The notes below the pieces were generated by a model. It was not told the DNA's origin. It did not search any database and saw only the letters and a list, made by a program, of their open reading frames with translations. Shown here piece after piece: positions 7,783-29,023 of a stretch of 64,000 nucleotides of DNA (its first letter is position 1; each line of letters begins with the position of its first letter). Location: assembly GCA_965219955.1 (NCBI GenBank), contig OZ244799.1, positions 896,001-960,000 of the forward strand, read 5' to 3'. Position numbers and translations under genes: made by a program. This DNA comes from a bacterium. GTDB lineage: Bacteria > UBA8248.

Positions 7783-8406
7783 GTGAAACGCATCCTTCTC
7801 GCTGCGATGGTGTTGTTCCTGGCAGTCTCTGCTTCCGCCCAGGAGCAGGACAAGAACCCGGAAGGGGCATACCTTCCGCTGCTCGGCTCCCATCAGGGCG
7901 AGCTGCTGGTCGCGCGCCCGGGTATGCCGGACGGTCGGTTTCACCAGAGCGTCATTCTTCTGGTGGAACACAATGAAAATGGGGCTTTCGGGCTGATAGT
8001 GAATCGTGTGGCGCAGAGAATTCCGCTCTCCGCGCTTTTCAGAAGTTTTGGTATCAAGGCGCCTCGAGACATGAGCCAGGTGAACATCCACTACGGTGGA
8101 CCCGTGTCGCCCGACACCGGCTTCGTGCTCCATACGACAGAACATGAACTCAACGTGATACACGACGTGGGAGAGAATGTGGCGATAAGCCCGGTGGATG
8201 CGGTCCTCCGGGCCATGACCCGAGGCAAACGACCCGAGAAAATCGTTATCGCGGTCGGCTACGCCGGCTGGGGCGCCGGGCAGTTGGAGAGCGAGATGAA
8301 GCGCGGAGACTGGTATACGGCGCCTGCGGATCCGGATATTTTGTTCGATGATGATCATGCGAGCAAATGGAGCCGGGCCATGGAGCGGCGATTCCGGGTG
8401 ATGTAG
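7783..8406 (+). CDS. YqgE/AlgH (DUF179) family protein with N-terminal signal-like peptide
   Basis: F.QSVILL.EH...GAFGLIVN, YGGPV, GYAGWGAGQLESE. Confidence 0.88.
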   Translation: MKRILLAAMVLFLAVSASAQEQDKNPEGAYLPLLGSHQGELLVARPGMPDGRFHQSVILLVEHNENGAFGLIVNRVAQRIPLSALFRSFGIKAPRDMSQVNIHYGGPVSPDTGFVLHTTEHELNVIHDVGENVAISPVDAVLRAMTRGKRPEKIVIAVGYAGWGAGQLESEMKRGDWYTAPADPDILFDDDHASKWSRAMERRFRVM

Positions 8407-8519
8407 GTTCTACGAGGGCATCAATGATCCGGCGAGTTTATATCGGGCGCCACGCGGCAAGCTCAGCGAGTTCCTCAACGGTGCTGTTCGGCTGGAAAAC
8501 TTCCCGCACGATCCTGCTG

Positions 8520-8864
8520 CTAGCCCGGCGGCCATTCCATGCGGCGTCCGCCCAGGAGGTGAAAGTGGATGTGAAAGACCGTCTGGCCCCCGTTTTCTCC
8601 GCAATTCGCGACGATACGGAATCCTTCTTGCGCGATTCCCCGTTTTCGGGCGATTTCATTCGCAACAACGAAAATCGAGCCAATCAGCTCCTTGTCCGCA
8701 TCCTGTATTTCGTGGAGCGTCTCCATGTGTTTTTTGGGGATGATCAGAATATGCGTGGGCGCCGCAGGGTTGACGTCTTCAAATGCAAACAATGCGTCAT
8801 CTTCATACACTTTTTTGCAAGGGATCTCGCCGGCTACGATTTTGCAAAAGACGCAAGATTGCAT
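8520..8864 (-). CDS. hinT: HIT family histidine triad nucleotide-binding protein
   Basis: CVFCKI, HILIIPKKH, GGQTVFHIHFHLLGGR..WPPG. Confidence 0.93.
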   Translation of the reverse strand: MQSCVFCKIVAGEIPCKKVYEDDALFAFEDVNPAAPTHILIIPKKHMETLHEIQDADKELIGSIFVVANEIARKRGIAQEGFRIVANCGENGGQTVFHIHFHLLGGRRMEWPPG

Positions 8865-9065
8865 TTTATATCTCCAAAATGGTGAGAGTATGCAAACGAT
8901 GGAAAATTCTATCCGCAAGTTATGCCTATGACAAACGCATCTGTATCCCGAGGGTATGAAGAAGGGTTCCCGCTCTTGCGCGGAGGCGGGATTCAGCCGG
9001 TTCTGGTATGATTTCCGGATAGAGAAAAACACCTGCCCGGTCGTGGGCTTACATCTCAAAATCAC

Positions 9066-10487
9066 ATGCCGACTTTAGCGGAAGGAGAAGTTCGAATGAA
9101 TATAAGCCGAATGCTCGTCGAGCACGTTCACGCCATTACATATGATTCTCTGCCCGATGAGGCCAGGGACCGCGCAAAGTATTTCCTGCTCGATCACCTC
9201 GGCGTTACATTGAGGGCGATGGAAGCGGCCAGTTCCCGGGTTTTTCATAATTTCGCCCAAAAGCGCGCTCCCCGGGGCGGGCCGTGCTCCATCATCGGTT
9301 CGGCTTTGAAAACGGATGCCCCTCATGCCGCGCTGGTGAACGGCGGCGTGAGCCACGCTACCGAAATGGATGATGTGACTACGCGCTCCAGCCTGCATCC
9401 CGCGGTCAGCGTCATGCCCAGCACGTTAGCCGTTGCCGAAGCGCATCAGCCCGACCCGAAGCGCGTGATCGCCGCTATCGTGGCAGGCTATGAAGTGACC
9501 AATCGCATTGGCAATGCCGTGAACCCGACGAGCCACTATGAGCGCGGGTTCCATCCCACGGGCACCTGCGGCACTTTCGCCTCCGCGATTACGGCGTCGA
9601 AGCTTCTGGGGCTGTCGGTCGAGGCCACCTCCAATGCAATGGGCATTTCGGGCAGCCAGGCGGCGGGATCGATGCAATACCTGGATAACGGCGCCTGGAC
9701 GAAGAGGTTTCACCCGGGATGGGCGGCGCATAGCGGTATCATCGCCGCCTATCTGGCCCAGGAGGGATATACGGGACCGGAAGATATCCTGGGCGGGAAG
9801 ACGGGATTTTTGCATGGCCATAGCGATGACTATTCGCCCGAGTATGTTGTGGAGCACTTTGGGGAGTACTGGGAAATCTGCGAGAGCGCCATAAAGCCCT
9901 ACGCTTGTTGTCGCTATAACCACGCTTCAATCGACGCCACAATCGAAGTCTGCAAAGCGCATGATATTCAGCCGGAGGAAATCAGACGAGTTAAAGTCCG
10001 GGTTCCAGAGACGAGCGTGATGGTGGTCATCGAACCCTATGACATGAAAACAAATCCGCAAAACATCGTTGATGCGCAGTTCAGCCTTCAATATGCAGTG
10101 GCTGTAGCGATTCTCAGGCGCGCCGCAGGACTTGATGAGTATGCCGACGATTTCCTTCGCTCCCAGGTTTACTCCTCGATCATCAAGAAAATTGAATGTT
10201 GCGGCGATGCCGAAATGGAAAAGGAATTTCCGGATAAATGGCAGGCGCATGTCGAAATCGAGACCGATCGCGGCGCTTTCGAAGCGCATCAGGATTATCC
10301 AAAAGGGGATTCGCGCAATCCGTTGACGTGGGATGAGTTGATCGAGCGATTCTACGTGATGACGGCCCCGGTGCTTGAAAAGGAAACGGGGGATTTGCTG
10401 ATCGAGCGGGTGAGGAATTTGGAAAATCTCAACAGCATCTCAGAGGTCATGGAACTTTTGTCCAAAGGGCAGGGAGTTCCAGCCTGA
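9066..10487 (+). CDS. MmgE/PrpD family protein
   Basis: SHATEMDD, HP, GYEV, GFHPTG, KPYACCRYNH, DAQFS, PKGD.RNP. Confidence 0.9.
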   Translation: MPTLAEGEVRMNISRMLVEHVHAITYDSLPDEARDRAKYFLLDHLGVTLRAMEAASSRVFHNFAQKRAPRGGPCSIIGSALKTDAPHAALVNGGVSHATEMDDVTTRSSLHPAVSVMPSTLAVAEAHQPDPKRVIAAIVAGYEVTNRIGNAVNPTSHYERGFHPTGTCGTFASAITASKLLGLSVEATSNAMGISGSQAAGSMQYLDNGAWTKRFHPGWAAHSGIIAAYLAQEGYTGPEDILGGKTGFLHGHSDDYSPEYVVEHFGEYWEICESAIKPYACCRYNHASIDATIEVCKAHDIQPEEIRRVKVRVPETSVMVVIEPYDMKTNPQNIVDAQFSLQYAVAVAILRRAAGLDEYADDFLRSQVYSSIIKKIECCGDAEMEKEFPDKWQAHVEIETDRGAFEAHQDYPKGDSRNPLTWDELIERFYVMTAPVLEKETGDLLIERVRNLENLNSISEVMELLSKGQGVPA

Positions 10488-10534
10488 TGATTCATAAGCT
10501 GGGAACGAGGCCGTTTCAAATCGGGCGCTTTGTT

Positions 10535-11260
10535 TTATAGGTTTGCTTGTGCGGTTTTTCCATTGTTGAATCGCTGGAAGATGGAAATTCCCAGGGCTAA
10601 ACGCATTGCAAGACGCTTGAGGAGGTGAGTCGCCATCCTTTCTTGGTATCGCTCGGGATCTCTTGAGCCCAAGATGAGAAAGCCGATGATTCCCTCATTA
10701 ATTTCCAGAGGAACAGTGGCGGTCGAATGAATATTTTCTCTCAACGTTTCTGGAAAGAGTGGGCCTCCGCTTCCTTCTAGTTTGCTTTTGAGCACAACGC
10801 CCCCTTCCATGGGAACGAGTTCTTCCTCAATTTTGGCAAGTGGACGAATGCGGGATGATTCCTCCGGATTAGCAGCAATCACCGGAATACCATCGATAGG
10901 TTCCAGAAGTAAGAAACCTGCGTATTCAATTCCAAAGCGTGATTCGATATTTTGGGCGATTCTTGTGAGGCTCGTTACCGAGGGCGCTTGTTCAAACAAA
11001 AGTTGTTCAATGGCCAAAAAGTCTTTTTCGATCTGCTCATTTTGGCGAACGAGTTCTATCGTTTCATCAAGGAGTCGTATCAGATCCTCTCTTTCGCCTT
11101 TTAAGCGGTCAAACAGTTTATCACGCAAGTTGAGGACTTTTGCTGAAGTGCTGTCTTGAGTCAGCAGACCGCTTTGGCGAAGCAAGTCTGGGTGTTCTAT
11201 GAAAAAACCGGGATTTTCTTCCAGGTAACATACGACATCATCCGCCGAAATCGGCGCCAT
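10535..11260 (-). CDS. DUF484 (YigA-like) GAF-fold protein
   Basis: VVCYLEENPGFFIEHP and LGSRDPERYQERMATHLL match the DUF484 pattern. Confidence 0.7.
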   Translation of the reverse strand: MAPISADDVVCYLEENPGFFIEHPDLLRQSGLLTQDSTSAKVLNLRDKLFDRLKGEREDLIRLLDETIELVRQNEQIEKDFLAIEQLLFEQAPSVTSLTRIAQNIESRFGIEYAGFLLLEPIDGIPVIAANPEESSRIRPLAKIEEELVPMEGGVVLKSKLEGSGGPLFPETLRENIHSTATVPLEINEGIIGFLILGSRDPERYQERMATHLLKRLAMRLALGISIFQRFNNGKTAQANL

Positions 11261-11438
11261 TTCGAATCTCCTTGAACGGCATATGAATAAACAAAGGGCG
11301 GGTGATGGGAAAAGCTTGGAATTATCAACAAGCTTACCACCCCAGTTGGGGATTGACAAAAACCTTAGAGCGAATAAAAACATCTAAACGATTGACGGTG
11401 GCTTCGATAACAAATTTTATCCAGATAGCGAGGAAATT

Positions 11439-12362
11439 ATGAAAACCTTAAAGCCAGGAAGCGTTACTATCGGTTTCGTCGGGATAGGAAAGATGGGAAA
11501 ACCCATGTCGAAAAATCTGAGGCATGGCGACTATACGGTGGTTGCTTATGACACGAGACCAGAAAATATGAAGGCTGTTGCGGCTGATGGCGTGCAAGAG
11601 GCTGAGAGCTTGAGCGATTTGGCGAGTCGCGCCGATGTTGTCATTACAATGTTACCTGATAGTGACGTCGTTGACGCAGTAGTGGATGGATCAGATGGAC
11701 TATCCTCACACCTGGATAAGGGGAAATTGATTATCGATATGAGTTCTTCCTACCCGATAAGGACTAGTATTCTCGCCTCGCGTGTGGAAGAAAAGGGATT
11801 GCACCTGATTGGAGCGCCGGTCTCGGGCGGCGTAGTTGGAGCGGAAGCCGCCACATTGGCGATCATGCCGGGTGGTCCCAAGGAGATTGTGGATGCGGCG
11901 ATGCCTATTTTTGAAACGTTGGGGAAAACGATTGTTCATATCGATGAAACACCGGAATCTGGACACGCAATGAAATGTGTAAATAATTTTCTCTCAGCCA
12001 CGAGCTTGCTCGCATCTATGGAGGCCATGGTTTTGGCATCGAAGCTGGGCCTGGACCCGGAAAGGGCGCTTCAGGTCTTCAATGGAGGCTCAGGCATGAA
12101 TAGCGCTACAAAAGACAAATGGCCTCGGTTTCTCCTGCCGCGGGACTTTACCTGTGGGTTCTCCACGGGGTTGATGCACAAAGATCTCTCGATGGGGAGC
12201 GATTTGGCACGCGAATACGGTGTGGCGGCGTTTTATTTGAATCAAGCTCGGCAGATGTATGGTCTGGGTGTGCAAAAATTTGGACCAGATTCAGATCAGA
12301 CGGAATTATTGCAAATGTTTGAGGAATGGTCTGGAAAAAAGGTGGGTGAACCACCTGCGTAG
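11439..12362 (+). CDS. 3-hydroxyisobutyrate/6-phosphogluconate dehydrogenase-like NAD(P)-dependent oxidoreductase
   Basis: GFVGIGKMGKPM, APVSGG, K..NN, KDL. Confidence 0.9.
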   Translation: MKTLKPGSVTIGFVGIGKMGKPMSKNLRHGDYTVVAYDTRPENMKAVAADGVQEAESLSDLASRADVVITMLPDSDVVDAVVDGSDGLSSHLDKGKLIIDMSSSYPIRTSILASRVEEKGLHLIGAPVSGGVVGAEAATLAIMPGGPKEIVDAAMPIFETLGKTIVHIDETPESGHAMKCVNNFLSATSLLASMEAMVLASKLGLDPERALQVFNGGSGMNSATKDKWPRFLLPRDFTCGFSTGLMHKDLSMGSDLAREYGVAAFYLNQARQMYGLGVQKFGPDSDQTELLQMFEEWSGKKVGEPPA

Positions 12363-12518
12363 CAGGGGACCGCTAACTAAGCGGATGGATCCCATAACAA
12401 AGTGTTTTTCCTCATAATGTTTTCAGTGTAAGCTGATGTTATGTATAGTATTGGTGTTTTCGAGAATGTCGATTTTCAAAGGGTTTTGATTATGTCTCGA
12501 AAATAGAATCGAGGAAAT

Positions 12519-12890
12519 ATGCATAAACCTTCGTTACAGCTTATTACGGGTTTTATTATTTTCCTCTTGCTTCTTCCGGGTGTGTCAGGATGTGGCAATA
12601 CCAGAAAGCAAATGGGGAAATGGTGGGAGAGGAATGTTGAGAATCCGATTAAAGGCTTCAAGAATCGACAACTAATCGTCACGTCGAATCCACCACAGGC
12701 AGATGTTTTCATCGATGATATTTACCAAGGAAAAACACCGCTGCGCCTGAAATTTAAAACCGGCATGAAAGATATTTTCAAGGGCTTTACCGTATCAGTG
12801 CAAAAGAAGGGATATTTGCCTGTCAGGCGTACCGTGTCGTATCGGGCCGAACGAGTGACGTTTAGCTTGATCAAGAAGAAAAGAAAATAA
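12519..12890 (+). CDS. PEGA-domain lipoprotein
   Basis: VSGC lipobox; VTSNPPQADVFIDD..GKTP..KKGY. Confidence 0.75.
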   Translation: MHKPSLQLITGFIIFLLLLPGVSGCGNTRKQMGKWWERNVENPIKGFKNRQLIVTSNPPQADVFIDDIYQGKTPLRLKFKTGMKDIFKGFTVSVQKKGYLPVRRTVSYRAERVTFSLIKKKRK

Positions 12891-13041
12891 GAGGAATGAA
12901 AAAGATAATCAGTTTGTTAAGACTTAGAATTGACTTTTAGCGGCTGGATTGATAGATATCCTCTTCGTTATGGCCGAAAGTTAGGGAAATGGTTGATTTT
13001 TAAGACCAAAGCATAATTTGGGCTTCAAGGAGATTTTTTGA

Positions 13042-13359
13042 ATGTATGCTGTAGTGGAAACCGGCGGCAAGCAGGTACGTATTGAAACGGGAGATCAAAT
13101 CTTGGTCGAGCGTTTGCCCGGTAATGTTGGAGAAAGCGTCGAGTTTGAGGATGTTCGACTTATCGTAGATGGAGAAGAAGTTGTTGCAGATAAAGAGGCG
13201 TTGAGCAAAGCTAAAGTAAAAGCGGTGATTCGTGACCACGGGCGTGGACAAAAAGTTGTAGCTTTTCGATTCAAACGCCGCAAAAAAGTTCGGACCAAAC
13301 GAGGGCACAGGCAGCCTTATACTCAAATAGAAGTGACAGACATCCTCGCTTCAGGATGA
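13042..13359 (+). CDS. rplU: 50S ribosomal protein L21
   Basis: MYAVVETGGKQ..GHRQPYT. Confidence 0.98.
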   Translation: MYAVVETGGKQVRIETGDQILVERLPGNVGESVEFEDVRLIVDGEEVVADKEALSKAKVKAVIRDHGRGQKVVAFRFKRRKKVRTKRGHRQPYTQIEVTDILASG

Positions 13360-13371
13360 AAGGAATAGAAT

Positions 13372-14697
<1,326 letters not shown>

Positions 14698-14698
<1 letters not shown>

Positions 14699-15849
14699 TG
14701 AGCGAGACGATGATCAGAAGAAATGATCCTGTACTCAAGAGTCGGCGCATTGTAGTCAAAGTGGGAAGCTCGGTTTTGACAGCATCTGATGAATTGGGCG
14801 TGAACCGTAGAGTTTTGGGACGCATCGCCTCCCAAGTGGCGAAACTCAGAGAAGAGGGTAGGCAAGTCGTTATGGTTTCATCTGGTGCCATTGCGGCTGG
14901 TGTGAAAAGGCTGGGTCTTAAAGGAATTCCTAAAGCAGTTCCTGAACGCCAAGCCGCCGCTGCAGTTGGCCAGCCCATCTTGATGGAAGCATATGGCCGT
15001 GCATTCAAACAGAGAGGCATCGAGACGGCACAGGTGTTGCTCATTCATTCAGATTTAGATGAGAGAAGCCGATTTCTGAACGCTTGTAATACTTTTCAAG
15101 CGTTGATTAACAAAGGTGTGCTCCCAATTGTGAACGAAAACGATACAGTTTCCATTGAGGAAATCCGTTTTGGGGACAACGACACATTGGCCGCCCAGAC
15201 AGCCCAAATAGTTCAGGCAGGTCTCGTCATTATCTTGTCAGATGTAGCGGGTTTGTATGATGAGGACCCTAGGCGATCAAAAATGGCGCGTTTGATTCCC
15301 CGTGTTGAGGGTCTGCCCAAGGAAATTACCTCAGTCGCAGGCACCAGTTCGAACCCACTTGCTCACGGGGGAATGCGTACGAAGGTTGAAGCCGTTAATA
15401 TCCTCAATAAAGTGGGTATTAGCACACTCATAGTGAAGGGGCGAGACCCCAACATTATCGAACGTGTCGTGATGGGTGAACCGTTAGGGACGCTTTTCGT
15501 GCCGAATGGTGCGCGCCTAAAGGGGAAAAAGGGCTGGATAGGAACCACGGCTAAAACCCGCGGGTGGCTTAAACTCGATAGCGGTGCCGTAAATGCCATG
15601 CTGAAGAGAGGAAAAAGTCTTTTGCCGAGTGGTGTATTATCCGTTGGAGGGAATTTTCGTTTTGGTGATGTAGTGGAGATACGTGATACTCAAGGAGTGG
15701 CATTTGGACGAGGACTAGCGAATTATTCGAGTGATGATGCTACTCGAATCGCAGGGAAACAAACCAAAGAAATCGCCTCTATTCTCGGAAGCAAGGATTA
15801 TGATGAGATCATTCACCGAAACAATTTCGTTTTGATTGAAGAAGAATAG
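14698..15849 (+). CDS. proB: Glutamate 5-kinase with PUA domain
   Basis: VVKVGSS, NENDTV, FGDND, GGM.TK, KSLLPSG. Confidence 0.96.
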
Positions 15850-16543
15850 TAATAGCCAAGGAGAGCGATTGCGCATCGGGATTCTAGGCGGGACATTTAA
15901 CCCGATTCACTATGGGCACCTCCGATCCGCCGAAGAAGTGTATAAAGAACTGATGCTTGATGAAATCAGGTTTGTTCCGTCTGCTTTGCCGCCTCATAAA
16001 CCGAAAGATGAAGTCGCCTCAGCGGATGACAGGCTGAAAATGGTTCGTATTGCTTTGGAGAATTATCCCGCATATGTATGTGATCCCGTTGAAGTAGAGC
16101 GGGGAGGGGCATCTTATACCCTTGATACTTTGAAGGAACTTACGAGAAAGATCCCTGACAAAAATGATATGTTCTTCATCATCGGTGCGGATGCGTTTCT
16201 TGAGTTGGGCACATGGCACAAGCCAAAAGAGGTTTTAAGCGCCACTAATTTTGCTGTTACTTTGCGAGGAAATCAAAATACTCCAGAGTATTTCGAAATG
16301 CTTCTCCGAGTGATTCAAGAAATTGAGCCAAGTTATTTCATCAACAGATTCTTAAAAGAAGTTAAATCTACTGATAAGAAGCGGGTGATAAAATTTATTC
16401 CGATCACTGAAGTTGACATTTCAGCAACCCGGATCAGGCAGCGCATAAAAGAGTCATCCTCCATACAGCATTTATTGCCACGCGAGGTCGAACTCTTTAT
16501 AATTCGCCGCCGATTATATGGGCATTCGGGAGTTGTTCGCTAG
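15836..16543 (+). CDS. nadD: Nicotinate-nucleotide adenylyltransferase
   Basis: GGTFNPIHYGH, PPHK, SYT, IGAD, ISAT.IR. Confidence 0.95.
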   Translation: MKKNSNSQGERLRIGILGGTFNPIHYGHLRSAEEVYKELMLDEIRFVPSALPPHKPKDEVASADDRLKMVRIALENYPAYVCDPVEVERGGASYTLDTLKELTRKIPDKNDMFFIIGADAFLELGTWHKPKEVLSATNFAVTLRGNQNTPEYFEMLLRVIQEIEPSYFINRFLKEVKSTDKKRVIKFIPITEVDISATRIRQRIKESSSIQHLLPREVELFIIRRRLYGHSGVVR

Positions 16544-16572
16544 AGGCTAAAGATTGAGGAGGATGGAGGCCT

Positions 16573-16929
16573 ATTAAGAAACTAGAGAATCGTCTTCATG
16601 CTCTCCAAGAGTCATTAGAAGCGAAGAAAGCCATGAAAGTAGTGCTTTTGGATCTTCGATCTCTATCCGTCGAGGTGGATGCATTTTTGATTTGCCATGG
16701 AACGAGCCTCCGACATGTGCAAGCGCTTTGTGAGGCGGCTAGGGAAAAACTCAAGAGAATTGGGGATACTGTATTATTGACAGAAGGGTTAACTGAAGGA
16801 AATTGGGTGTTGATGGATTGTGGTGATTTTCTTGTCCACATATTCAATGAAAAGAGCCGAGATTTTTACCGACTAGAAGATTTATGGTCGCACGCATCCG
16901 TCATCAAACCAATAGCACCTAGTGCTTAG
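16573..16929 (+). CDS. rsfS: Ribosome silencing factor RsfS; probable ATT start (first in-frame ATG is 16633)
   Basis: KKA..VVLLDL, W.L.D.GD..VHIF..R.FY.LE.LW; follows nadD. Confidence 0.9.
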   Translation: MKKLENRLHALQESLEAKKAMKVVLLDLRSLSVEVDAFLICHGTSLRHVQALCEAAREKLKRIGDTVLLTEGLTEGNWVLMDCGDFLVHIFNEKSRDFYRLEDLWSHASVIKPIAPSA

Positions 16930-16957
16930 ATCATCAGTATGAAAGTTGAGGTTCAGA

Positions 16958-17323
16958 GTGAAGCATTTGACTAAAAAACAGCTAAGAGATTTAGCAGAAA
17001 GATTGAATGCAGTGCGCCGCGAAATACTTGGGGATGTTGAGAAAAGTAAGATACACACCAAAGAAATCGGTGATGATGGGACTCAAGATATTGCGGACAT
17101 GGCTGCCGACACCTATTCTCGTCAGGTTTTAATGGATTTAGGAGAAAGGGAGCGGGAGCGTCTGCGGGAAGTGGAAGCAGCATTCCAGAGGATAGAAGAA
17201 GGACTTTATGGTATTTGTGAGGAGTCGGATGAGCCGATTCCCTATTCCCGCCTGGAAGCGATTCCCTATGCCCGTTATACAGTGGCGGCTCAAAATGCAA
17301 TTGAAAGGCGCGGCGGTAGTTAA
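16958..17323 (+). CDS. DksA/TraR family transcription regulator (single-Cys type)
   Basis: DIAD coiled-coil tip, RIEEG.YGICE..EPI..RLEAIP. Confidence 0.88.
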   Translation: MKHLTKKQLRDLAERLNAVRREILGDVEKSKIHTKEIGDDGTQDIADMAADTYSRQVLMDLGERERERLREVEAAFQRIEEGLYGICEESDEPIPYSRLEAIPYARYTVAAQNAIERRGGS

Positions 17324-17344
17324 ATACCGGGCTGTGAGTTGCGA

Positions 17345-18821: not shown

Positions 18822-19280
18822 ATGAAGCGTATCGCTCTTGCCGCTGATCATGGAGGGTATGAACTCAAGGAAGCAGTCAAACAAATGCTTGATGATAGAG
18901 CGATTCCATATCTTGATTTCGGGACGAACTCGGATGAATCTTGTGATTACCCGGATTATGCCGAACTCGCCGCTCGTTCAGTGAGCGAAGGCAACTCCGA
19001 ACGGGGAATTTTCTGTTGTGGGTCGGCTGCGGGAATGGTCATCGTGGCGAATAAATTTCCGGGTGTTCGCGCCGTAGCCTGCCACAATGAGTGGGCCGCG
19101 CGAATGAGCCGCTTGCACAATGATGCCAATGTCTTGGCTCTAGGTGGTCGGGTGGTCAGCCTAGAAGAGGCAGAAAGAATTGTAGCCATTTGGTTGGAAA
19201 CAGAGTTTGAAGGCGGGCGTCATTCCCGCCGTTTGGATAAGATTTCTGATATTGAGGATGCGCTCCAGCCGACGTCCTGA
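18822..19280 (+). CDS. rpiB: Ribose-5-phosphate isomerase B
   Basis: ADHGG, DYPD, ANKFPGVRA, HNDANVL, FEGGRH.RR. Confidence 0.95.
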   Translation: MKRIALAADHGGYELKEAVKQMLDDRAIPYLDFGTNSDESCDYPDYAELAARSVSEGNSERGIFCCGSAAGMVIVANKFPGVRAVACHNEWAARMSRLHNDANVLALGGRVVSLEEAERIVAIWLETEFEGGRHSRRLDKISDIEDALQPTS

Positions 19281-19307
19281 TGATTCTACTGCACGGGCCG
19301 GATTCTT

Positions 19308-19772
19308 ATGAAATGTCCGATATGTAGTCACTCTGAGAGTAAAGTGGTCGACAGCCGAACGACCAAGGAAGGCAACTCAATTCGCAGAAGGCGTGAGTGC
19401 GAGGAATGCGCTCACCGTTTTACGACTTATGAGAGGGCGGAAGTCTCCTGGCCACTTATAATTAAGAAAGATGGCACACGTGTAAATTATCTTCGCGACA
19501 AAATAAGCATAGGGATCAAGAAGGCGCTGGAGAAAAGGCCTGTTTCTGCCGAGGATCAAGAAGCGATTGTCGACCGAATAGAACGATATATACTTGATAG
19601 TGGCGAGAAAGAGCTATCCACAGAGGCTATTGGGGAAAAGCTCATGGGAGAGTTGAGGGATGTAGATGAGGTAGCCTATGTGCGTTTCGCATCAGTCTAT
19701 CGTTCATTCAAAACCCTCAAAGATTTCGAAGCCGAGTTGGAAAAATTAGAAGAACGCACCAATATCGAATAA
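19308..19772 (+). CDS. nrdR: Transcriptional repressor NrdR
   Basis: MKCPIC, VVDSR, RRRREC, RFTTYE, ATP cone, YVRFASVY. Confidence 0.97.
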
Positions 19773-19876
19773 AGAGTGATTCATATCGTTAATCTATTTT
19801 GGCCCAATTTACTGTAATCCTACCGGATAAATGCCCAATCATACTCCATTTAATGGATTCTAAATTTGAAGTAGCT

Positions 19877-21091
19877 TTATTCGCTGATGGTTTCACCCAC
19901 AGGGTCAGCACCCCGGTGGGAAGCTCCGGATGCCATTAAATTTTTGATTTCTTTATCTTGAAATCCATATTCTTTTAATATTTCAACGGAATGCTCCCCC
20001 AATCGGGGTGGAGGGAAAGAGTCCCGTATAGGCAAATCCGAAAATTTTGGCGCCGGCCTCGTGCCGGGATAAGTCCCTTTGACGGGATGTTGGTATTCTC
20101 TTACGAACCCACCCGATTGAACCTGTGTGTGTCCGAAACTTTCGAGCATGTTAAGCGCCGGGCTCACACATACATCCGCACCATCAAAAAAAGTGGTCCA
20201 CTCATCGAGAGTTTTTGTTCGGAAAGTATTATTGAGTGCTTGAATCACCTCTATGCGGCGCTCACCGCTAGCGCTATAGTCATCGTGAAAATCATCATGC
20301 CCGATCAATTTGCATAAATTTATCCAAAATTTCGGCTCCGAGCATGCGACAGAAAGCATCCGGCCGTCTTTGGTAGGATAGAGGCGGTAACATGGTCTTC
20401 GGCCATTGTGTCGCATTTCTTCACGCCCTGGGCATTGCTCTGTCGAAAGATATGTTTGGCCGTGGATGGATAAAAAACTCATCACAGCATCGAGCATGGA
20501 CATGTCGATAAATTGTCCAACGCCTGTTCGGTCGGTAAGGCGTAAAGCCGCGAGTATTGCGAAAGCCGCCCACATTCCGGCACCCACATCCCCGATGAGC
20601 ACCCCGGGCACATACGGTGGGCCTCCTGCGGCTCCAGTAAGTTCTACGACACCACCTAGAGCCTGGAAGTTCAAATCATGTCCCGGAATTCGAGCCAGAG
20701 GGCCATCTTGTCCATATCCGGTGATAGAGCAATGGACAAGGGCTGGGTTCTCTTTTTTGAGTCTTTGATAGCCAATGCCCAGGCGCTCCATCACCCCCGG
20801 TCTGAAGCTATCGACGAGTACGTCTGTATCTTTCACCAGCTTGAGGAATGTGGATATACCGCTTTCATTCTTAAGATCTAATGCTAAGGAGCGTTTATTG
20901 CGGTTATAGCAAAGGTGAAGTGGGGATACGCCATGTTCATCAAAAGGGGATGCGAGGCGGATATAGTCGCCGCGCAGCGGTTCTTCTATCTTGATCACAT
21001 CCGCTCCCATATCGGCGAGCATCAAAGTGCATTGCCCGCCGGGAAGCAGGCGGCTCAAGTCTAATACACGTACACCAGTCAGTGGCATCAC
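19877..21091 (-). CDS. CaiB/BaiF family III CoA-transferase
   Basis: GVRVLDLSRLLPG, NRNKRS, GYGQDGP, GHD, PP.LGEHS. Confidence 0.92.
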   Translation of the reverse strand: MMPLTGVRVLDLSRLLPGGQCTLMLADMGADVIKIEEPLRGDYIRLASPFDEHGVSPLHLCYNRNKRSLALDLKNESGISTFLKLVKDTDVLVDSFRPGVMERLGIGYQRLKKENPALVHCSITGYGQDGPLARIPGHDLNFQALGGVVELTGAAGGPPYVPGVLIGDVGAGMWAAFAILAALRLTDRTGVGQFIDMSMLDAVMSFLSIHGQTYLSTEQCPGREEMRHNGRRPCYRLYPTKDGRMLSVACSEPKFWINLCKLIGHDDFHDDYSASGERRIEVIQALNNTFRTKTLDEWTTFFDGADVCVSPALNMLESFGHTQVQSGGFVREYQHPVKGTYPGTRPAPKFSDLPIRDSFPPPRLGEHSVEILKEYGFQDKEIKNLMASGASHRGADPVGETISE

Positions 21092-21257
21092 TTAACATTC
21101 CTTCTTGAAATTTGTAGACAAGCAGAGTTTCTATTGCGATATCATTCGACGTTTCAAAGATCAATGAAATGAGGGTGTATAAGTTGCTTCTCGCCTTTTA
21201 TCCTTCGCTTAAGATGGGCTACCCTAGGCGACCTTAAAGGAGCGGGTATGGAAGTAG

Positions 21258-22571
<1,314 letters not shown>

Positions 22572-22672
22572 TAGCGTACCGTATGTCATTCCGACAATAT
22601 TGATTATTTTGGAAATGAGAGGATGTCGCATTTTCGAATCGAGCGCCGTTTCCAAATTGAATCGATGAGGAT

Positions 22673-24028
22673 TTACTTGGATAAATAAATGTGCACGAGG
22701 CCGGATTGATCGACGAAAGCGATGTCGTCTTTCGCGTCTTGGTTGAAATCTGCGGTGAGTATGTTGGAACGAACGGGTGAGGGGATAGGCCTCGTCCATC
22801 TGAAATGCCAACGATTTCCGAAGAGCGCTAGCCCACTCAAATGCTGCCGGCCGACTTCTTGCATCACAACTTCCGCAACTCCTCGACGTCTTAGCAAAGT
22901 GAATTCCCAAAGGTTACGTGAACCAACCGAATGCGTGGTGAAACCAGCCATGCGAGCTCGCTCGCGGAGTCGTTTTCCACTAAGCCGCAGTGCCAGCAAG
23001 AAGCCTGCCAAATGTGGCTTTTCGACGGCCAGAACTTTCGGAGCACTGCCGTCGATATTGAATGCACCCAATAGATGCGACCAGCGCTTTCCCTTCCCGA
23101 TAGCCTCACCTCGGGCTTTTAGCGCAAGTTTGTTATTCCTCATGCCTAAAACCAGATGAGCCGCTCCACGGTCGTCGTCACTTTTAGTGACTAGAATTTC
23201 CTGTTTCCCGTCTTTGTCCAAGTCCGAGACTAGGGTACCAATGGCTTCGAAAACACCATTCTTTCCTGCGGTGTATTTGGCCATGAGTTGGAGAGATTTT
23301 TGGTTGAAGCGATATGCGTGGATTTCTGTTGGCTCGATGTCATCGCCAAGTACGGCGTGTCTATAAAGTCTGGATGGTACAGCGGGCACGATCAATTCTT
23401 TTCTTCCATCTCCGTCCAGATCCGCTGTTGTTAAGACAGCGTCTGGCAATACTCTTGCCGTTTTCGCTTTAATGAGTTGAGTCTGGAGCCATTTGCCCTC
23501 TTTTTTTTGGAATAAAAGCAAGGAGCCATCGACGCCGACCATTGCCACGTTATCTCTATCCAATACGACGGGTTTCGATAGGGTTGAAGGGCGGATGCTT
23601 GGCCAGACGAACAACCAACGCCGTTCGATAGTGTCGACATTGATGAACATTCCACTTTTTCCTGCGCCGACAAAGCTCCCGTCGGACAATTGCGTGGGTG
23701 GGACATTTGCAGCCAGGTCGGAGGGGGTAGGGTGGTCTTGCACATGCACACGAAACAGTTCGCCTGATTTCTTGAAGGTGATGGGATGAAAATCGCCATC
23801 CATTGTAAAGGCCAGAAGGGTAGTTTTTGTCTTTGAAGAACCTTTTTCGGCAGGTGCTGTCAACAACCACTTCGTTCTGCTTGATACTAAGGCGGTGAGT
23901 GTTTGGTGAGTAACGAGAGTTTCTGAGCCTTCAGCTATATTTTCATGTGGATAGAAGGTAAAGACGCAGACTAGAGCAAAAAGAATAGATAACTTCTTTC
24001 TTGAAATTCTCATCATCGCATCGTGCAT
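22673..24028 (-). CDS. Secreted FG-GAP/VCBS-repeat protein
   Basis: Signal peptide; DLDGDGRKEL, DLDKDGKQEI, DFNQDAKDDI calcium-blade motifs. Confidence 0.7.
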   Translation of the reverse strand: MHDAMMRISRKKLSILFALVCVFTFYPHENIAEGSETLVTHQTLTALVSSRTKWLLTAPAEKGSSKTKTTLLAFTMDGDFHPITFKKSGELFRVHVQDHPTPSDLAANVPPTQLSDGSFVGAGKSGMFINVDTIERRWLFVWPSIRPSTLSKPVVLDRDNVAMVGVDGSLLLFQKKEGKWLQTQLIKAKTARVLPDAVLTTADLDGDGRKELIVPAVPSRLYRHAVLGDDIEPTEIHAYRFNQKSLQLMAKYTAGKNGVFEAIGTLVSDLDKDGKQEILVTKSDDDRGAAHLVLGMRNNKLALKARGEAIGKGKRWSHLLGAFNIDGSAPKVLAVEKPHLAGFLLALRLSGKRLRERARMAGFTTHSVGSRNLWEFTLLRRRGVAEVVMQEVGRQHLSGLALFGNRWHFRWTRPIPSPVRSNILTADFNQDAKDDIAFVDQSGLVHIYLSK

Positions 24029-24033
24029 GGTTT

Positions 24034-24798
24034 CTACCCTGCCGTGACGCCGCCATCTGAAAGCACTATCGAGCCATTCATGAATGCATTTTCAGGAGAG
24101 ACCATAAACAGAGCAGTGGCCGCCATATTTTCGACCGTACCGAGTTGATGGAGTGGTATGCCCTCCAGTCTGGACTGGAGATATTCGGGTTTTGCATCGA
24201 GCCTTACTTTTACGCGAGGGCTTGCAACCAGGCCCGGTGCCAGGCAGTTCACGCGAACTCCCAGAGGTCCTAATTCCAGGGCCAGGCATTTCGTGAGATG
24301 GTGAAGCACGGATTTGGTCACCGAATAGAGACTCGTATCGGCTCTGCCTCGATGACCAGCAGATGAGCCGATCATCAAAATTGTGCCGCTTTTTTGAGGA
24401 ATCATCACCTTTGCCGCTTCACGGGATGCGATGTAGGCGGCTTTGGCATTGACTTCGAACAAGAGGTCGACTTCATCATCTGTGATTTCGACAATGGGTT
24501 TGAAGGCTCGAGTGCCCGCGCAAATGACTAAAATATCAAGTCCACCTAGGAAGTCGACGCCATCACGAATCAGTTGAACGGTGCGCCGCGCTTTGGATAA
24601 ATCATAACATTTTCCACCGGCGTTTACGCCAAGGTTTTTGCACGCGTTGATGGTGCTTCGCAGTCCTTGTGGATCGCTACCTCCCGTTCCCCATACGTGA
24701 GCCCCTGCTTGGGCGTATACGTGGGCGATAGCGGCTCCGATACCGGTTGATGCTCCTGTGATGATGACACGCTTATCCGCCAATAGTTTTGTAGACAT
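24034..24798 (-). CDS. Short-chain dehydrogenase/reductase
   Basis: TGASTGIG, YSVTK, RVN.LAPG. Confidence 0.92.
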   Translation of the reverse strand: MSTKLLADKRVIITGASTGIGAAIAHVYAQAGAHVWGTGGSDPQGLRSTINACKNLGVNAGGKCYDLSKARRTVQLIRDGVDFLGGLDILVICAGTRAFKPIVEITDDEVDLLFEVNAKAAYIASREAAKVMIPQKSGTILMIGSSAGHRGRADTSLYSVTKSVLHHLTKCLALELGPLGVRVNCLAPGLVASPRVKVRLDAKPEYLQSRLEGIPLHQLGTVENMAATALFMVSPENAFMNGSIVLSDGGVTAG

Positions 24799-25102
24799 GG
24801 AGTATCCTCTTACGATGAATAGGAAAAGTAAGGGTGATGATTATCGAATAGATTGCAATGATGGTAAATACATTCGAAGGTTTGTGGTTTTTGGTCATGG
24901 CATGGAAACCTGCGTTTTAGAGTTTGGAGTTCGAGAGGGTTGTACGAGGGTCATACTATCTGTTGGCGATTTCATGTGAAACTGAAAGCGCAATAATGTT
25001 CATTAGAGATTACTTTGGTCTGATCACTCATTAGAAATGTTCAAAAGGGCAGAGGGTTTTCAAGGTCGAATGAAGATATTTGGAACTTTGGTCGTTTAGT
25101 AT

Positions 25103-25546
25103 ATGAAAGGGAAGGAAATGGGCAAAAAAGTAGAGCATCGCCATTGGCCGGACGCCCCTGAATTATGGATGCCATATGCGCCGGTTATCAAAGTAACCGG
25201 GGGTAGCCTCGTATTTCTGGCTGGGGTAACCGCTGCACCCGTCTATCATTATCATCCGCATCGACCGGAAGAATTTGATGCCATGCCCCGAGATATGGAG
25301 GGGCAGACTCGAGCGGCGTTGGAGAACTTGAAAAAAAGCCTTGAGGCGGTGGACGCCGATTTTGGCGATGTCGTTTCCGCCAACCGATTTGTTACTGACT
25401 TGGCGGATCAAGATTCTCTGAATAAAGTATGGGCTGAATATTTCGGAGACAACAAGCCAACTACAACCACTGTCCAGGTGGTTCAACTGGCTACAGATCC
25501 ACGTTGTCTCATCGAGGTAAATGCCTTGGCCGTTGTCGATTCATAA
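25103..25546 (+). CDS. RidA/YjgF family protein
   Basis: QTRAALEN, N..WAEYF..KP, LIEV. Confidence 0.85.
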   Translation: MKGKEMGKKVEHRHWPDAPELWMPYAPVIKVTGGSLVFLAGVTAAPVYHYHPHRPEEFDAMPRDMEGQTRAALENLKKSLEAVDADFGDVVSANRFVTDLADQDSLNKVWAEYFGDNKPTTTTVQVVQLATDPRCLIEVNALAVVDS

Positions 25547-25689
25547 CGATAGCTTAGAATCCAAAACTTATGCTTGCACAAAAGCTTGGATTACAGCCAG
25601 AGACACGAAGCTCTTGTCAGAGCGGGGCGCCCTTTGTTAGCATTTGTTCATACATGAATATGCGCCCTTGGTTCCCCACCGAGAATTAG

Positions 25690-26877
25690 GTGTCCATGAT
25701 ACGTCGCTTAAGAAATCCGGAATCTCGTATCAAAGTTTTGGAAGGGCGTTTACAACAATACCCATCCTCGGCTGTTTTTTTCCCTCTGGCCTCACTTTTA
25801 TGGGAGAAAGGCTTGGTAGATCAGGCCGAAAATCTCCTGAAAAGTGGCCTTGCAACCTATCCCAACTACGCAGCTGCGGGTGTTTTGCTTGGAGAAATAC
25901 TCATTACGAAAGAAGAACATGAACAAGCAGTCCGCTATATCACAAAAGCTCTGGAAATCGCTCCCTGGAATATTTCTGGTAGGCGTCTTCTGGCTGAATG
26001 CTATCGAAAAGAGGGCGATGAGGAAGCCATGCAAGTCGCGTTAAGAGTAGCCAAGATGCTTGAGGGCGATGAAGTAGCGATCCAAAGCGCGATAATCGAT
26101 TCCAATGTGGATAGCGCTCCAGTTGTTGTTCCGGAAGGCGAATTGGACGAAGTGGCAACGCCTGCTCTCGCTGAGCTTTATATGGCTCAGGGCCATCTGG
26201 ATAAGGCGCGGGACGTTTATGAGCGTCTTTTGGAGTCTGAGCCCGCTAAAGTCGAATGGAATGAGAGATTGGTTGCTATCAAAGAGCAAATATCGCAGGG
26301 GGAGGATGGTGATGGGCCCACGGGATACCCCGAGATGGGGGAAAATCTCGATTTGATAGCAGGAGAAATAAAAGGTGAGGCAAACGTACCGGGTGAGGCG
26401 AAGGCGGATGACGTCGCGTCCGGAAATATGGAAGCAGTTAAAGGGGACGTCGATACGTCAGCCGCCGAATTTCAAGACTTGGGTGATGTTTCGAGCCCTG
26501 CCGATAAAATAGCTGAAAGCGAGAATGAGGGGCGGGAGCCTGGCACCGCTCCAGAAGAAGAGGGTGTTGTTGGGGAAAAAGCCGTCGACTCCATTCTCCG
26601 AAAGATGGTTGAACTCTACGTCGAAGAGGATAACGATGCACTAGCGCTGGATATGTGCCGAAAAGCGCAAGCCTTGGGAGAGAACGCCCCTTGGATGTTG
26701 GAAAAAATCTCGGTGCTTGAGCGAAAAATGGAAGAATCGGCCGCATCACTGTTGCGTTATGAAGAGGAAGAAGATAAAGACCGATCGACTCCGGATCTTC
26801 TTCGTGCTGACCAGATGGTTGTGGAAACTTTGGAAGATTGGCTCGAAACGTTGCAACGGCGCAAAGCGAACGCATAA
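25690..26877 (+). CDS. Tetratricopeptide repeat protein
   Basis: FFPLA..GL..YPNY, TPALAELY.AQG..A..Y, acidic linker. Confidence 0.75.
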   Translation: MSMIRRLRNPESRIKVLEGRLQQYPSSAVFFPLASLLWEKGLVDQAENLLKSGLATYPNYAAAGVLLGEILITKEEHEQAVRYITKALEIAPWNISGRRLLAECYRKEGDEEAMQVALRVAKMLEGDEVAIQSAIIDSNVDSAPVVVPEGELDEVATPALAELYMAQGHLDKARDVYERLLESEPAKVEWNERLVAIKEQISQGEDGDGPTGYPEMGENLDLIAGEIKGEANVPGEAKADDVASGNMEAVKGDVDTSAAEFQDLGDVSSPADKIAESENEGREPGTAPEEEGVVGEKAVDSILRKMVELYVEEDNDALALDMCRKAQALGENAPWMLEKISVLERKMEESAASLLRYEEEEDKDRSTPDLLRADQMVVETLEDWLETLQRRKANA

Positions 26878-26986
26878 CCCGTCCGCCTGGTTAATTGGAT
26901 TGCTTGAAATATCGGGATATGGGTTCTGGAAAATGTGTTTGCTCCTGTTTTTTAGTTTGTTGACCTCGTAAGCGGGTGAATTTGGC

Positions 26987-29023
26987 ATGACGAAACTATC
27001 AAAAGAGAAGGCTCTATTCTCTGGCATGAGTATTGCCGAACAATCAATTCACACCATACGTACACTTTCGATGGATGCGGTGCAGAAGGCGAACAGTGGT
27101 CATCCGGGCACGCCAATGGCGCTGGCGCCACTAGCGTATGAACTGTGGGTGAACCATCTGCGTTATAATCCCCGGAACTCAGACTGGTTTGATCGAGACC
27201 GTTTCGTGCTTTCGTGTGGTCATGCCTCCATGCTTCTTTATGCCGTTCTCCATTTGAGCGGTTATGAACTTCCGCTCGATGAGATCGTTCGCTTTCGTCA
27301 GTGGGACAGCAAGACGCCGGGACACCCCGAATATGGTCTTACGCCGGGTGTCGAGACCACTACTGGCCCGCTCGGACAGGGGTTCATGAACGCAGTGGGC
27401 ATGGCAATGGCGGAGGCGCATTTGGCGGCCACTTTCAATCGGCCAGGCCATTCGATTGTAGACCACAATACCTATGTATTCATGAGCGATGGCGATATCA
27501 TGGAAGGCGCATCGCATGAAGCGGCATCCCTCGCGGGACATCTGGGTCTGGCGAAATTGATATGTGTCTATGACGATAATCGCATCACTATCGACGGCGA
27601 AACATCGTTGAGTTACTCCGATGACGTTGTGAAACGTTTTGAGGGGTACAACTGGCATGTGCAGAATCTCGGTGATAGTGCGGAGGATTTATCCCGGATT
27701 TCAGGAGCGCTTGACTCGGCAAAGGCGGAAACCGAGCGCCCTTCTTTGATTGTAGTGCGTTCGCACATCGGATATGGCTCGCCTCGATATCAGGATACCG
27801 CGCGGGCGCATGGTGCTCCTTTGGGGAATGAGGAAGTCGAGGCTACGAAAAGGAGTTATGGCTGGCCCGAGGGCGAGACGTTTCTGGTGCCGGACGAGGT
27901 ATCCACCCATATGGGAGAGGCGGTTTCTCGCGGCGCCGCGCTTGAAGAGGACTGGAATCACCGGTTCTCAAAATATGAATCGGAGAATCCTGAGTTGGCT
28001 GAGAAGTTTCAGGCGGCGCTTAAAGGCGAACCTCCTGCCGGCTGGGAGAGCTGCATTCCCGGTTTTGGAGCCGATGACGGGGCGCTCGCAACGCGGGCGG
28101 CATCTGGCGAAGTATTGAATGAAATCGCCTCTGCTATTCCCTGGTTGATTGGAGGAAGCGCGGACTTGGCGGCTTCAAACAACTCGCTCATCAAAGAATC
28201 AGGAAATTTCGCCAGGGGGGATTTTTCCAATCGCAACATCAACTGGGGCATCAGGGAACACGCTATGGGAGCCGCCTGCTCGGGAATGGCCCTGCACGGG
28301 GGTGTTCGTCCTTATGCGGCCACATTTTTCACGTTCACCGATTACGCCCGCCCGGCCATACGGCTCGCGGCGCTGATGGAATTGCCCGTCATCTATGTAA
28401 TGACGCATGACTCTATCGGTCTGGGCGAGGATGGCCCCACCCACCAGCCTGTCGAGCATCTCGCATCGCTTCGCGCCATGCCGGGTCTCACCATCATACG
28501 GCCATGCGACGCGAACGAAACCACCGCAGCTTGGCGAGTGGCGATCGAGCGTCTTGAAGGTCCGACCATGCTCGTGTTGACGCGCCAGGGCCTGCCCATC
28601 TTGGAGCGTTCGGAGGAGAACGAAGCGGATGCCCTGTCACGAGGGGCCTATGTCGTCTCGGCAGAGAGCGGGAATTCTCCTCAAGCTATATTGATTGCCA
28701 CGGGCTCGGAAGTGCATCTCGCAATGGAAGCGCAAAGCGCGTTGGCGGCAGATGGAATCGATGCCCGGGTCGTGAGCATGCCGAGTTGGGAGCTTTTCAG
28801 GGAGCAATCTCCCGCCTATCGGGATTCCGTTCTCCCGCCGGAGGTGAAGGCGAGAGTTGCGATTGAGGCGGGCGCCACCATGGGTTGGCGCGAGTGGGTC
28901 GGGGAGGATGGCGTTGTGATTGGAATCGATCGATTTGGGGCGAGCGCTCCTTATAAGGAAATTTATGCGCATTTCGGACTCACGCCGGAGAACGTCGCCG
29001 CGCGCGTGAATGACCTCCTCTGA
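26987..29023 (+). CDS. tkt: Transketolase
   Basis: [42 protein letters not shown]. Confidence 0.98.

Follow-up and report, generated by a model that had tools for sequence, protein, structure and literature searches.

A conserved low-GC valley of collinear core genes with a distinct substitution regime in a GC-rich bacterial chromosome

Is a long low-GC stretch of a GC-rich bacterial chromosome, one that carries rplU-rpmA-obg, eno and tkt, an acquired island or a native domain with a composition of its own? The question is raised by a 64,000-nucleotide window (the whole stretch of DNA analyzed) at positions 896001-960000 of a single 4,283,615-bp contig with a GC content of 0.609 (G000:C1; assembly GCA_965219955.1, contig OZ244799.1, lineage UBA8248). 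Coordinates given without a contig are positions in this window. The original prediction described a low-GC valley of core housekeeping genes at 8400-28500, with gradual edges and no repetitive extragenic palindromic (REP) sequences, and proposed a chromosomal domain with its own mutation or repair regime, terminus-like or protein-coated, rather than an island. Our analysis makes it highly probable that the valley is an orthologous, vertically inherited and collinear block, the central 16.5 kb of which is under a distinct substitution regime in at least 17 species.

The valley and its counterparts in related genomes

GC content is 0.493 across 8400-28500 and 0.481 in 10500-27000, against 0.622 in the rest of the window. 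The hand counts that accompanied the prediction proved exact on recount (26/60 G+C for the line at 13141, 45/60 for the line at 1561, 26/60 and 16/60 in nadD, and 39/60 in efp). While the predicted span is low overall, the core occupies only ~10.5-27.0 kb and the remainder is gradient. At 1-kb resolution GC is 0.43-0.52 at ~10-27 kb and 0.55-0.69 elsewhere in the window; 5-kb windows of the whole genome have a mean of 0.609 with a standard deviation of 0.039, and 34 of them fall below 0.52. GC at third codon positions (GC3) is 0.39-0.54 in 17 genes from 10535 to 26877 of our own open reading frame (ORF) picks; the three left-edge genes have 0.59-0.71, tkt has 0.61, and 11 genes of the flanks have 0.71-0.88. 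Relative to its surroundings the valley has a deficit of ~13-14 GC points and ~35-40 GC3 points, and the valley/flank contrast at first and second codon positions is smaller than that at third positions (~0.35-0.4).

Both edges are gradients of 2-4 kb that lie outside the core, the left at 8.4-10.5 kb and the right at 27-29.3 kb. In steps of 50 codons GC3 falls from 0.85 through 0.72 and 0.6 to 0.45 over ~7.6-10.6 kb, and it climbs from 0.47 through 0.55-0.75 across tkt to 0.82 in the S41 peptidase gene (ctp), which agrees with the fall through yqgE-prpD and the rise inside tkt that had been noted by eye. The gradients are alike in the mean of 15 other valley-bearing species. GC skew across the window is 0.13-0.24 in the valley and ~0.0-0.1 outside it. 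The interval 6223-30751 contains no REP save one 67% match at chance level, as had been predicted, and a tRNA scan and an Rfam search of the window returned no tRNA and no match, respectively.

The region was compared over at least 22 kb among 19 genus members, comprising G000 and 18 others (G015, G018, and G021 were left out). The ~24-kb block from mnmA to the S41 peptidase gene (6.6-30.7 kb) is collinear in 19/19, with blastn pieces in the same order. The profile in related genomes had been proposed as a check, and the valley is present in 17 of the 19, namely G000 and 16 others (G011, G005, G003, G022, G008, G020, G013, G002, G004, G006, G009, G010, G012, G014, G016, and G019); it is somewhat shallower in G009, G010, and G019, with GC3 of ~0.50-0.65. 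Gene content and order are unchanged in G001 and G007, where GC3 is 0.77-0.94, with 0.88-0.92 in the eno orthologs, and regional GC is 64-73%. The eno locus of G017, the only locus of that genome looked at, is low in GC. A member of the sister genus, G023, retains the gene order at GC3 0.58-0.79, a value for the region alone with the genomic baseline unsampled. GC3 is high in G025 and G026, and G031, a relative at the class level with an enolase at 71% identity, is low in GC throughout the fetched region. No low-GC organism was seen among these 19 genus members, and G031 was the only low-GC relative seen.

Enolase was found in 40 of the 41 genomes searched, with an identity that declines in step with kinship. 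Only two genus members are among the 80 loci retained from an Obg search, the others coming from distant phyla at 43-56% identity. Protein distances, expressed as d(G000,G001)/d(G001,G007), give a ratio of 1.32 for the valley (16 genes, 4219 columns), 1.46 for the flanks (10 genes, 3491 columns), and 1.44 for the two edge genes. When nine valley genes were combined in a tree rooted on G023 (2267 columns, LG+G4), all 16 valley bearers included formed one clade, with (G001,G007) as its sister group. That clade has a short stem (0.029, with a Shimodaira-Hasegawa-like approximate likelihood ratio test (SH-aLRT) value of 89), and G009 and G019 branch first within it; G001 and G007 were flagged as deviating in residue composition. 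A flank tree of mnmA and ctp (843 columns) recovers the same groups and differs only in where (G022,G008) is placed. The history of the valley genes is that of the species, and on the rooted valley tree the regime began on the stem of the clade, after its split from the lineage of G001 and G007.

A chimeric assembly was also considered. An independent short-read run, X6, provides one 25,306-nt contig that covers 12001-31019 with 114 differences and passes the right edge at a single depth with no break (these are contigs and not reads). Contigs from two more runs cover the valley, and the runs that contain the stretch are labelled as sponge, marine, or coral metagenomes from seven studies. Of the two findings that would have overturned the prediction, an assembly break was not seen at the right edge, and the trees did not place the valley genes in another lineage. 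The contention that the valley is not an island is supported by the collinear orthologous high-GC blocks of G001 and G007, the equal protein divergence, the occurrence of the valley in 17 species, and the absence of amelioration described below.

The valley is one of at least seven core domains in G000, the depth of which depends on the lineage. G000 contains 22 segments of at least 6 kb with a GC below 0.53. Eight of the larger segments, including the window valley, were tested either against G001, G007, G022, and G019 or against G001, G007, G022, G020, and G002, and seven of the eight are collinear core blocks, the six others measuring 12-37 kb. For the window valley GC is 43-52% in G000, 46-50% in G022, ~48-58% in G019, 64-72% in G001, and 67-73% in G007. 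The block at 1086-1115k (gltX, ftsK, and a peroxiredoxin gene) has 49% in G000, 47% in G022, 49-50% in G020 and G002, 63% in G001, and 66% in G007. With values given in the order G000, G022, G019, G001, and G007, the remaining blocks are at 1281-1301k with secA (51, 49-50, 57, 51-55, and 60-67%), 1358-1373k (53, 50, 64, 60, and 65%), 1433-1445k (49, 47, 53-55, 60, and 60%), 644-657k (52, 51, 57, 67-68, and 68-71%), and 3561-3598k at the skew minimum with thrC, dnaN, nadA, and nadC (52, 48-50, 64-65, 66-68, and 67-69%). G001 is thus without the window valley yet has a deep valley elsewhere, at 1281-1301k. As regional GC varies among both blocks and genomes, valley depth is a per-block and per-lineage quantity.

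Cumulative skew places the terminus (maximum) at ~1.32 Mb and the origin (minimum) at ~3.60 Mb. The window, at 0.90-0.96 Mb, lies ~400 kb from the terminus, the valleys are scattered round the chromosome, and one of them is at the origin with dnaN, so the terminus-like character that had been suggested does not hold. A valley covers the presumed origin in G000 and G022 but not in G019, G001, or G007; this 37-kb block (G000:C1:3561001-3598000) also holds tupA and an mscK-like gene. The eighth segment, G000:C1:3703001-3722000, is a low-GC accessory island of the ordinary kind: nothing in G001, G007, or G019 matches it, and G022 shares only scattered repeats with it. Mobile elements are suggested by short pieces of the island that recur at up to 62 places in G022.

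Substitution regime, recombination, and rival explanations

Changes at fourfold degenerate sites were counted under three ingroup/outgroup polarizations, the first and third of which overlap. In the valley, changes from strong (G or C) to weak (A or T) bases and the reverse (S>W:W>S) number 148:89, 83:71, and 58:52, compared with 57:111, 44:87, and 39:126 expected under the per-site rates of the flanks. The flanks, in which W sites are few (73-91), give 103:19, 86:14, and 67:20 (Fisher p of 1e-5, 7e-8, and 6e-4). Expressed per site, S>W changes per S site are 0.091-0.245 in the valley and 0.061-0.094 in the flanks, and W>S changes per W site are 0.179, 0.156, and 0.091 in the valley versus 0.224, 0.192, and 0.220 in the flanks. 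The implied equilibrium GC at fourfold sites (GC4) is 0.42-0.50 for the valley and 0.70-0.78 for the flanks. Over all sites, S>W:W>S is 260:196 in the valley (equilibrium GC of 0.41) and 361:248 in the flanks (0.55). Fourfold p-distances from G000 in the valley are 0.30 for G022, 0.39 for G020, and 0.54 for G019 (n=1791), the last of which corresponds by our own arithmetic to about one substitution per fourfold site after Jukes-Cantor correction, and hence there has been ample time for amelioration. The valley composition is not ameliorating toward that of the host. Together with the distinct GC4 equilibrium and the at least six further domains, this supports the predicted chromosomal domain with a regime of its own.

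The valley composition is a regional effect and not one of codon choice. Fourfold sites of plus-strand valley genes have A/C/G/T frequencies of.22/.24/.26/.27, alike in all eight codon families, compared with.05/.44/.43/.08 in the flanks. Ten valley spacers have a GC of 0.405, against 0.564 for five flank spacers, and amino acid usage is shifted as well, with the residues FYMINK at.226 in the valley versus.188 in the flanks and GARP at.286 versus.354. Valley fourfold sites display a leading-strand skew (G>C, T>A) in either gene orientation that is absent from flank fourfold sites; minus-strand valley genes have C>G on the coding strand. As the skew tracks replication and not transcription, it argues against transcription-associated deamination. 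At depth, fourfold divergence is 0.30-0.54 in the valley versus 0.23-0.36 in the flanks. The uniform fourfold usage, the unmasked skew, the higher S>W and lower W>S rates, and the deep divergence are together as expected of a valley near mutational equilibrium and of flanks under a GC fixation bias.

Comparisons of closely related species bear on recombination. In 1-kb bins from three regions of G000 and G011, median divergence is 2.7% in low-GC bins (71 bins) and 4.7% in the others (72 bins); for two regions of G022 and G008 the values are 2.0% (50 bins) and 5.7% (53 bins). Bins more than 3% divergent make up 39% of low-GC bins versus 75% of the others in the first pair and 34% versus 89% in the second. 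For G000 versus G011, the fourfold p-distance drops from 0.099 in the flanks to 0.060 in the valley. The valley has a site incompatibility of 0.15, lower than the 0.25-0.38 of flank blocks, and 82% of its informative sites fit three compatible splits, compared with 49-66% in the flanks. Four REP motifs have 944 copies in the genome, of which one falls in 276 kb of low-GC segments where ~61 would be expected by length, and REPs are located at the breaks that separate collinear blocks. A link between recombination and low GC is suggestive only.

On balance we favor a reading in which the valley is a heritable domain with a weak GC-favoring fixation bias, probably by way of less recombination. 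The force that upholds GC elsewhere, where flank GC3 is ~0.8 against AT-biased mutation, would be weak or absent in such domains, and candidates for it are GC-biased gene conversion and recombination-assisted selection for GC. Under so weak a force, the domains would drift to mutational equilibrium. Homologous recombination may be less effective in long, REP-free, uninterrupted core blocks, and the edge gradients of 2-4 kb may represent the reach of conversion tracts that enter from the recombining flanks. As the cause of the valleys, reduced recombination is the leading candidate, although we hold it only tentatively.

Several observations weigh against this reading or qualify the data beneath it. 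The pairwise homoplasy index (PHI) is significant in the valley (z of -8.8), whereas two flank blocks out of three, B2 and B4, give no significant value; recombination is therefore not absent from valleys. Flank incompatibility may reflect recurrent mutation in a narrow G/C state space, and bins and species are non-independent. Stretches of G000 that lack REPs over as much as 130 kb can have a normal GC, and GC falls only weakly with distance from a REP, from 0.62 to 0.59 (rho of -0.19), so that a lack of REPs is insufficient for a valley. Per S site, the flanks undergo 3-5 times more S<->S changes than the valley, which a GC fixation bias alone does not predict. Polarization by parsimony with unanimous outgroups enriches for conserved sites, and gene coordinates and starts are our own ORF picks. 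Three of the flank spacers hold GC-rich REPs and the two REP-free ones have a GC of 0.47 and 0.53, and thus the intergenic contrast is less than the averages imply. Two low-GC patches are also unusually divergent: the PEGA gene at 12519-12890 has a fourfold p-distance of 0.35 to G011 versus 0.10 to G003, and in a second valley a patch at G022:C1 ~2863000-2877000 reaches 13-21% divergence from G008. Both patches remain low in GC and look like homologous imports from other valley-bearing lineages.

The strongest rival, which we nevertheless consider unlikely, is a region-specific mutation bias, with more GC>AT mutation or less repair arising from local properties of the DNA (its occupancy by protein, its supercoiling, its replication, or the choice of repair pathway, for instance). 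It would account for S>W changes being 1.5-2.6 times as frequent per fourfold S site as in the flanks, for the restriction of leading-strand skew and raised window skew to the valley, and for domains that are discrete, heritable, and variable among lineages. An extra GC>AT input does not, however, predict that W>S per W site would also be lower, as is observed, and fourfold divergence between the close species G000 and G011 is lower in the valley, not higher. The joint occurrence of lower W>S and higher S>W leans toward a difference in fixation over one in mutation or repair.

Selection for AT-rich DNA, whether for nucleoid organization, strand opening, or binding by an AT-preferring nucleoid protein, is improbable. 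That the same blocks are low or lowered in several lineages would fit such selection, as in 1433-1445k at 0.60 in G001 and G007 versus their ~0.67-0.70 elsewhere and in 1281-1301k at 0.51-0.55 in G001, as would the conservation of boundaries in 15 species and the valley over dnaN at the skew minimum. The valley fourfold sites are, however, near-uniform at 25% for each base, as under little constraint, and not strongly AT-skewed. Their higher divergence at depth signifies that they are not more constrained, G001 and G007 carry the same genes at GC3 ~0.9, and the valleys have no common functional theme.

An ancient en-bloc homologous replacement by the allele of a low-GC relative, still un-ameliorated, is disfavored and very improbable. 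The contiguous atypical composition, the right boundary within the conserved tkt, reminiscent of a recombination endpoint, and the different placement of (G022,G008) in the valley and flank trees are what such an event might leave. Against this, the valley genes are no more divergent from G001 and G007 than the flank genes and the clade stem is short; there is no W>S excess despite fourfold p-distances of up to 0.54 within the clade; and the edges are gradients rather than steps, the same in 15 species. Six more blocks would require the same history with lineage-specific depth, one of them deep in G001 and two absent in G019, and none of low GC was seen among the 19 genus members, G031 being distant in eno.

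Codon usage tied to expression, or else a chimera of assembly or binning, which the often highly expressed rplU-rpmA, eno, and tkt and the apparent origin of the genome as a metagenome assembly might suggest, is refuted for practical purposes by the uniform fourfold usage in eight families, the shift shared by spacers, amino acids, and the TPR, SDR, and CoA-transferase genes, the same junctions in 17 separately assembled genomes, and the X6 contig.

Genes and repeats in and around the block

Families were assigned by NCBIfam, Pfam, and TIGR profile scans. The left end of the genus-wide collinear block is mnmA (6558..7781, + strand; NF001138, E of 1e-121), which at GC3 0.83 is the last fully GC-rich gene on that side. 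The left gradient comprises an AlgH-like DUF179 gene, yqgE (7690-8406, +; PF02622; GC3 0.71), an unnamed ORF, g8367 (8367-8885, +; GC3 0.59), and a gene for an MmgE/PrpD-family protein (9066-10487, +; PF03972/PF19305; GC3 0.65). In the left part of the valley core, GC3 lies within 0.45-0.52 in the genes for a DUF484 protein (10535-11383, -), a HIBADH-like dehydrogenase (11439-12362, +), and the PEGA-domain protein (12519-12890, +). These are followed on the + strand by rplU (13042-13359), rpmA (13372-13629), obg (13610-14698), proB (14698-15849), and nadD (15836-16543). All but rpmA are single-copy genes with GC3 within 0.39-0.48; rpmA, assigned from NCBIfam and Pfam, stood outside the GC3 scoring and the copy-number queries.

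Further along the + strand, a DksA/TraR-like zinc finger gene (16946-17323), a TPR protein gene (17339-18616), and the single-copy genes rpiB (18777-19280) and nrdR (19308-19772) have GC3 within 0.41-0.49. A CaiB-family CoA-transferase gene (19877..21091, -; GC3 0.48) precedes eno (21279..22571, +; TIGR01060, E of 1e-203), which is single-copy with GC3 of 0.54. GC3 lies within 0.47-0.51 in the genes for an FG-GAP repeat protein (22673-24028, -), an SDR (24034-24798, -), a Rid-family protein (25103-25546, +), and a second TPR protein, TPR2 (25690-26877, +). The right gradient runs inside the transketolase gene tkt (26987..29023, +; TIGR00232, E of 2e-267), where the 5' half has a GC3 of ~0.5-0.6 and the 3' half one of 0.6-0.75. 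Full GC richness returns on the right with the S41 C-terminal processing peptidase gene, ctp (29360..30676, +; GC3 0.85), at which the collinear block ends.

A whole-genome tblastn search found no second full copy of rplU, obg, proB, nadD, rpiB, nrdR, eno, or tkt, the last having one weak partial match at 31% identity. No integrase or transposase family was found among the 22 valley or edge ORFs scanned. The predicted content of core housekeeping genes is correct for rplU-rpmA-obg, eno, and tkt and incomplete otherwise, as the valley also carries MmgE/PrpD-like, HIBADH-like, CaiB, SDR, Rid, PEGA, and FG-GAP genes and two TPR genes. The scans therefore describe the block as a mix of housekeeping and ordinary metabolic genes. 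Some of these belong to paralog-rich families in G000: tblastn at E <1e-10 returned 18 CaiB CoA-transferase matches including the valley copy, 11 for MmgE/PrpD, and 19 for HIBADH-like proteins, with SDR also rich in paralogs. G000 in addition has several F420/LLM-type oxidoreductases. At G022:C1:3028171-3029457 there is one TAG within the enolase match, possibly no more than its terminal stop codon.

Contigs from a metatranscriptome library lie on rplU-rpmA, the dksA-like gene, rpiB-nrdR, the Rid gene, and tkt. As contigs give no expression levels and DNA carry-over is possible, they argue only weakly against a silenced valley. A coat of a xenogeneic silencer of the H-NS, Lsr2, MvaT, or Rok type, which binds foreign and silent DNA, fits poorly with native core genes, several of which have RNA-library contigs on them.

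The block is bounded by repeats on both sides. On the left is a REP-like cluster with a 47-nt x3 tandem repeat (5001..6222; repeat families D6, D7, D9-D11, D13-D16, D18, and D19), the tandem portion of which, at 6082-6222 just left of mnmA, consists of three copies of a 47-nt unit (family D18) that are 72-77% identical to the first. On the right is a REP-like cluster at 30752..31358 (families D3, D4, D8, D11, and D16), which has a very high summed contig depth, as expected for a repeat. Clusters resembling REPs or miniature inverted-repeat transposable elements (MITEs) in the window are at 54-300, 5001-5821, 30752-31358, 37170-37531, 39293-39947, 43237-43328, 48221-48504, 51923-52014, 57683-57864, and 61521-61984, and their families have palindromic GC-rich cores, such as the ATTCCGGCTTTCGCCGGAAT core. 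No Chi-, KOPS-, or uptake-like octamer was found to be strongly skewed or over-represented; the best, GGGCAGGG, is 71% on the leading strand with an observed/expected ratio of 1.12. Two adjacent ~1.8-kb copies at 37572-39345 and 40116-41889 (families D1 and D12) are 81-83% identical at a spacing of 2544, with a long ORF in each. The pair looks like a tandem gene duplication in a variable REP-rich flank, and both copies are also found in G011.

Comparison with known systems and implications

Eukaryotic isochores are long GC domains in which synonymous, non-coding, and amino acid composition shift, and they are thought to be tied to local recombination. The valley resembles them in that all three kinds of composition are shifted together. 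In contrast to isochores, which extend over hundreds of kb to Mb, the domains described here measure tens of kb, occur in a bacterium, which has no meiosis, and are GC-poor exceptions in a GC-rich genome. Terminus-proximal AT enrichment is another known pattern, in which G+C3 is structured along the chromosome; the valleys differ from it in being scattered, with one at the origin. With horizontally acquired islands the valley shares a contiguous, atypically low GC. Unlike an island, however, it is not an insertion relative to related genomes, has no tRNA, carries single-copy core genes, has gradual edges, and displays neither amelioration nor discordance in trees or divergence. The only nearby repeats are genome-wide REP families. 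The contrast extends to the true island at 3703-3722k, which is absent from G001, G007, and G019.

Heterogeneity of GC3 among bacterial core genes beyond that explained by optimal codons has been reported, with signs of less recombination in GC-poorer genes, and GC-biased gene conversion (gBGC) was offered as an explanation (Lassalle et al. 2015, PMC4450053). As in that paper, the contrast in the present genus involves core genes, stands out more at third positions than overall, and has no explanation in codon optimality. The contrast presented there is a modest difference in means among scattered gene classes, whereas here it amounts to ~35-40 GC3 points in contiguous blocks of 12-37 kb with kb-scale gradients, and is conserved over about one substitution per synonymous site while the same genes have GC3 ~0.9 in sister species. 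Compared with the recombination signal in that paper, lower recombination of GC-poor genes in the present genus is suggestive only. A more recent study describes recombination landscapes that are conserved among related species, with coldspots mainly in housekeeping genes, and a positive correlation between r/m (recombination relative to mutation) and GC in 82% of species, for which selection was favored over gBGC (Nucleic Acids Res 2024, PMC11879095). The valleys resemble such coldspots in their housekeeping genes and in their conservation across species. Large discrete compositional domains do not feature in the corresponding part of that study.

A non-exhaustive full-text search, which took in few subscription journals, found no bacterial case of core genes that form discrete, multi-gene valleys in GC3. 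What is new relative to known GC3 heterogeneity is the size of the contrast, its contiguity, its persistence in at least 17 species, and the existence of sister species with high GC3. Why bacterial GC lies above the expectation from AT-biased mutation is an old dispute between gene conversion and selection, and in the parts that treat this question PMC4450053 and PMC11879095 take opposite sides. The valleys offer a clean contrast within one chromosome: the native blocks have the composition of mutational equilibrium in 17 species and a GC3 of ~0.9 in two sister species, their edges are kb-scale gradients, and at least six replicate blocks vary in depth with the lineage. On the practical side, composition-based island finders and checks for binning or contamination would wrongly mark such blocks as foreign.

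It is possible, although we regard the idea as speculative, that bacteria can have true 'isochores', that is, heritable domains of native core genes in which the force that maintains GC is switched off through a stable feature of chromosome organization. Were this so, the feature could be, for example, a recombination-proof or protein-organized domain, and such domains could appear, deepen, or fade independently in different lineages. The genus would in that case serve as a natural experiment, in which genes at GC3 0.45 in some species have counterparts at 0.9 in their sister species and the contributions of mutation, gene conversion, and selection to base composition could be separated.

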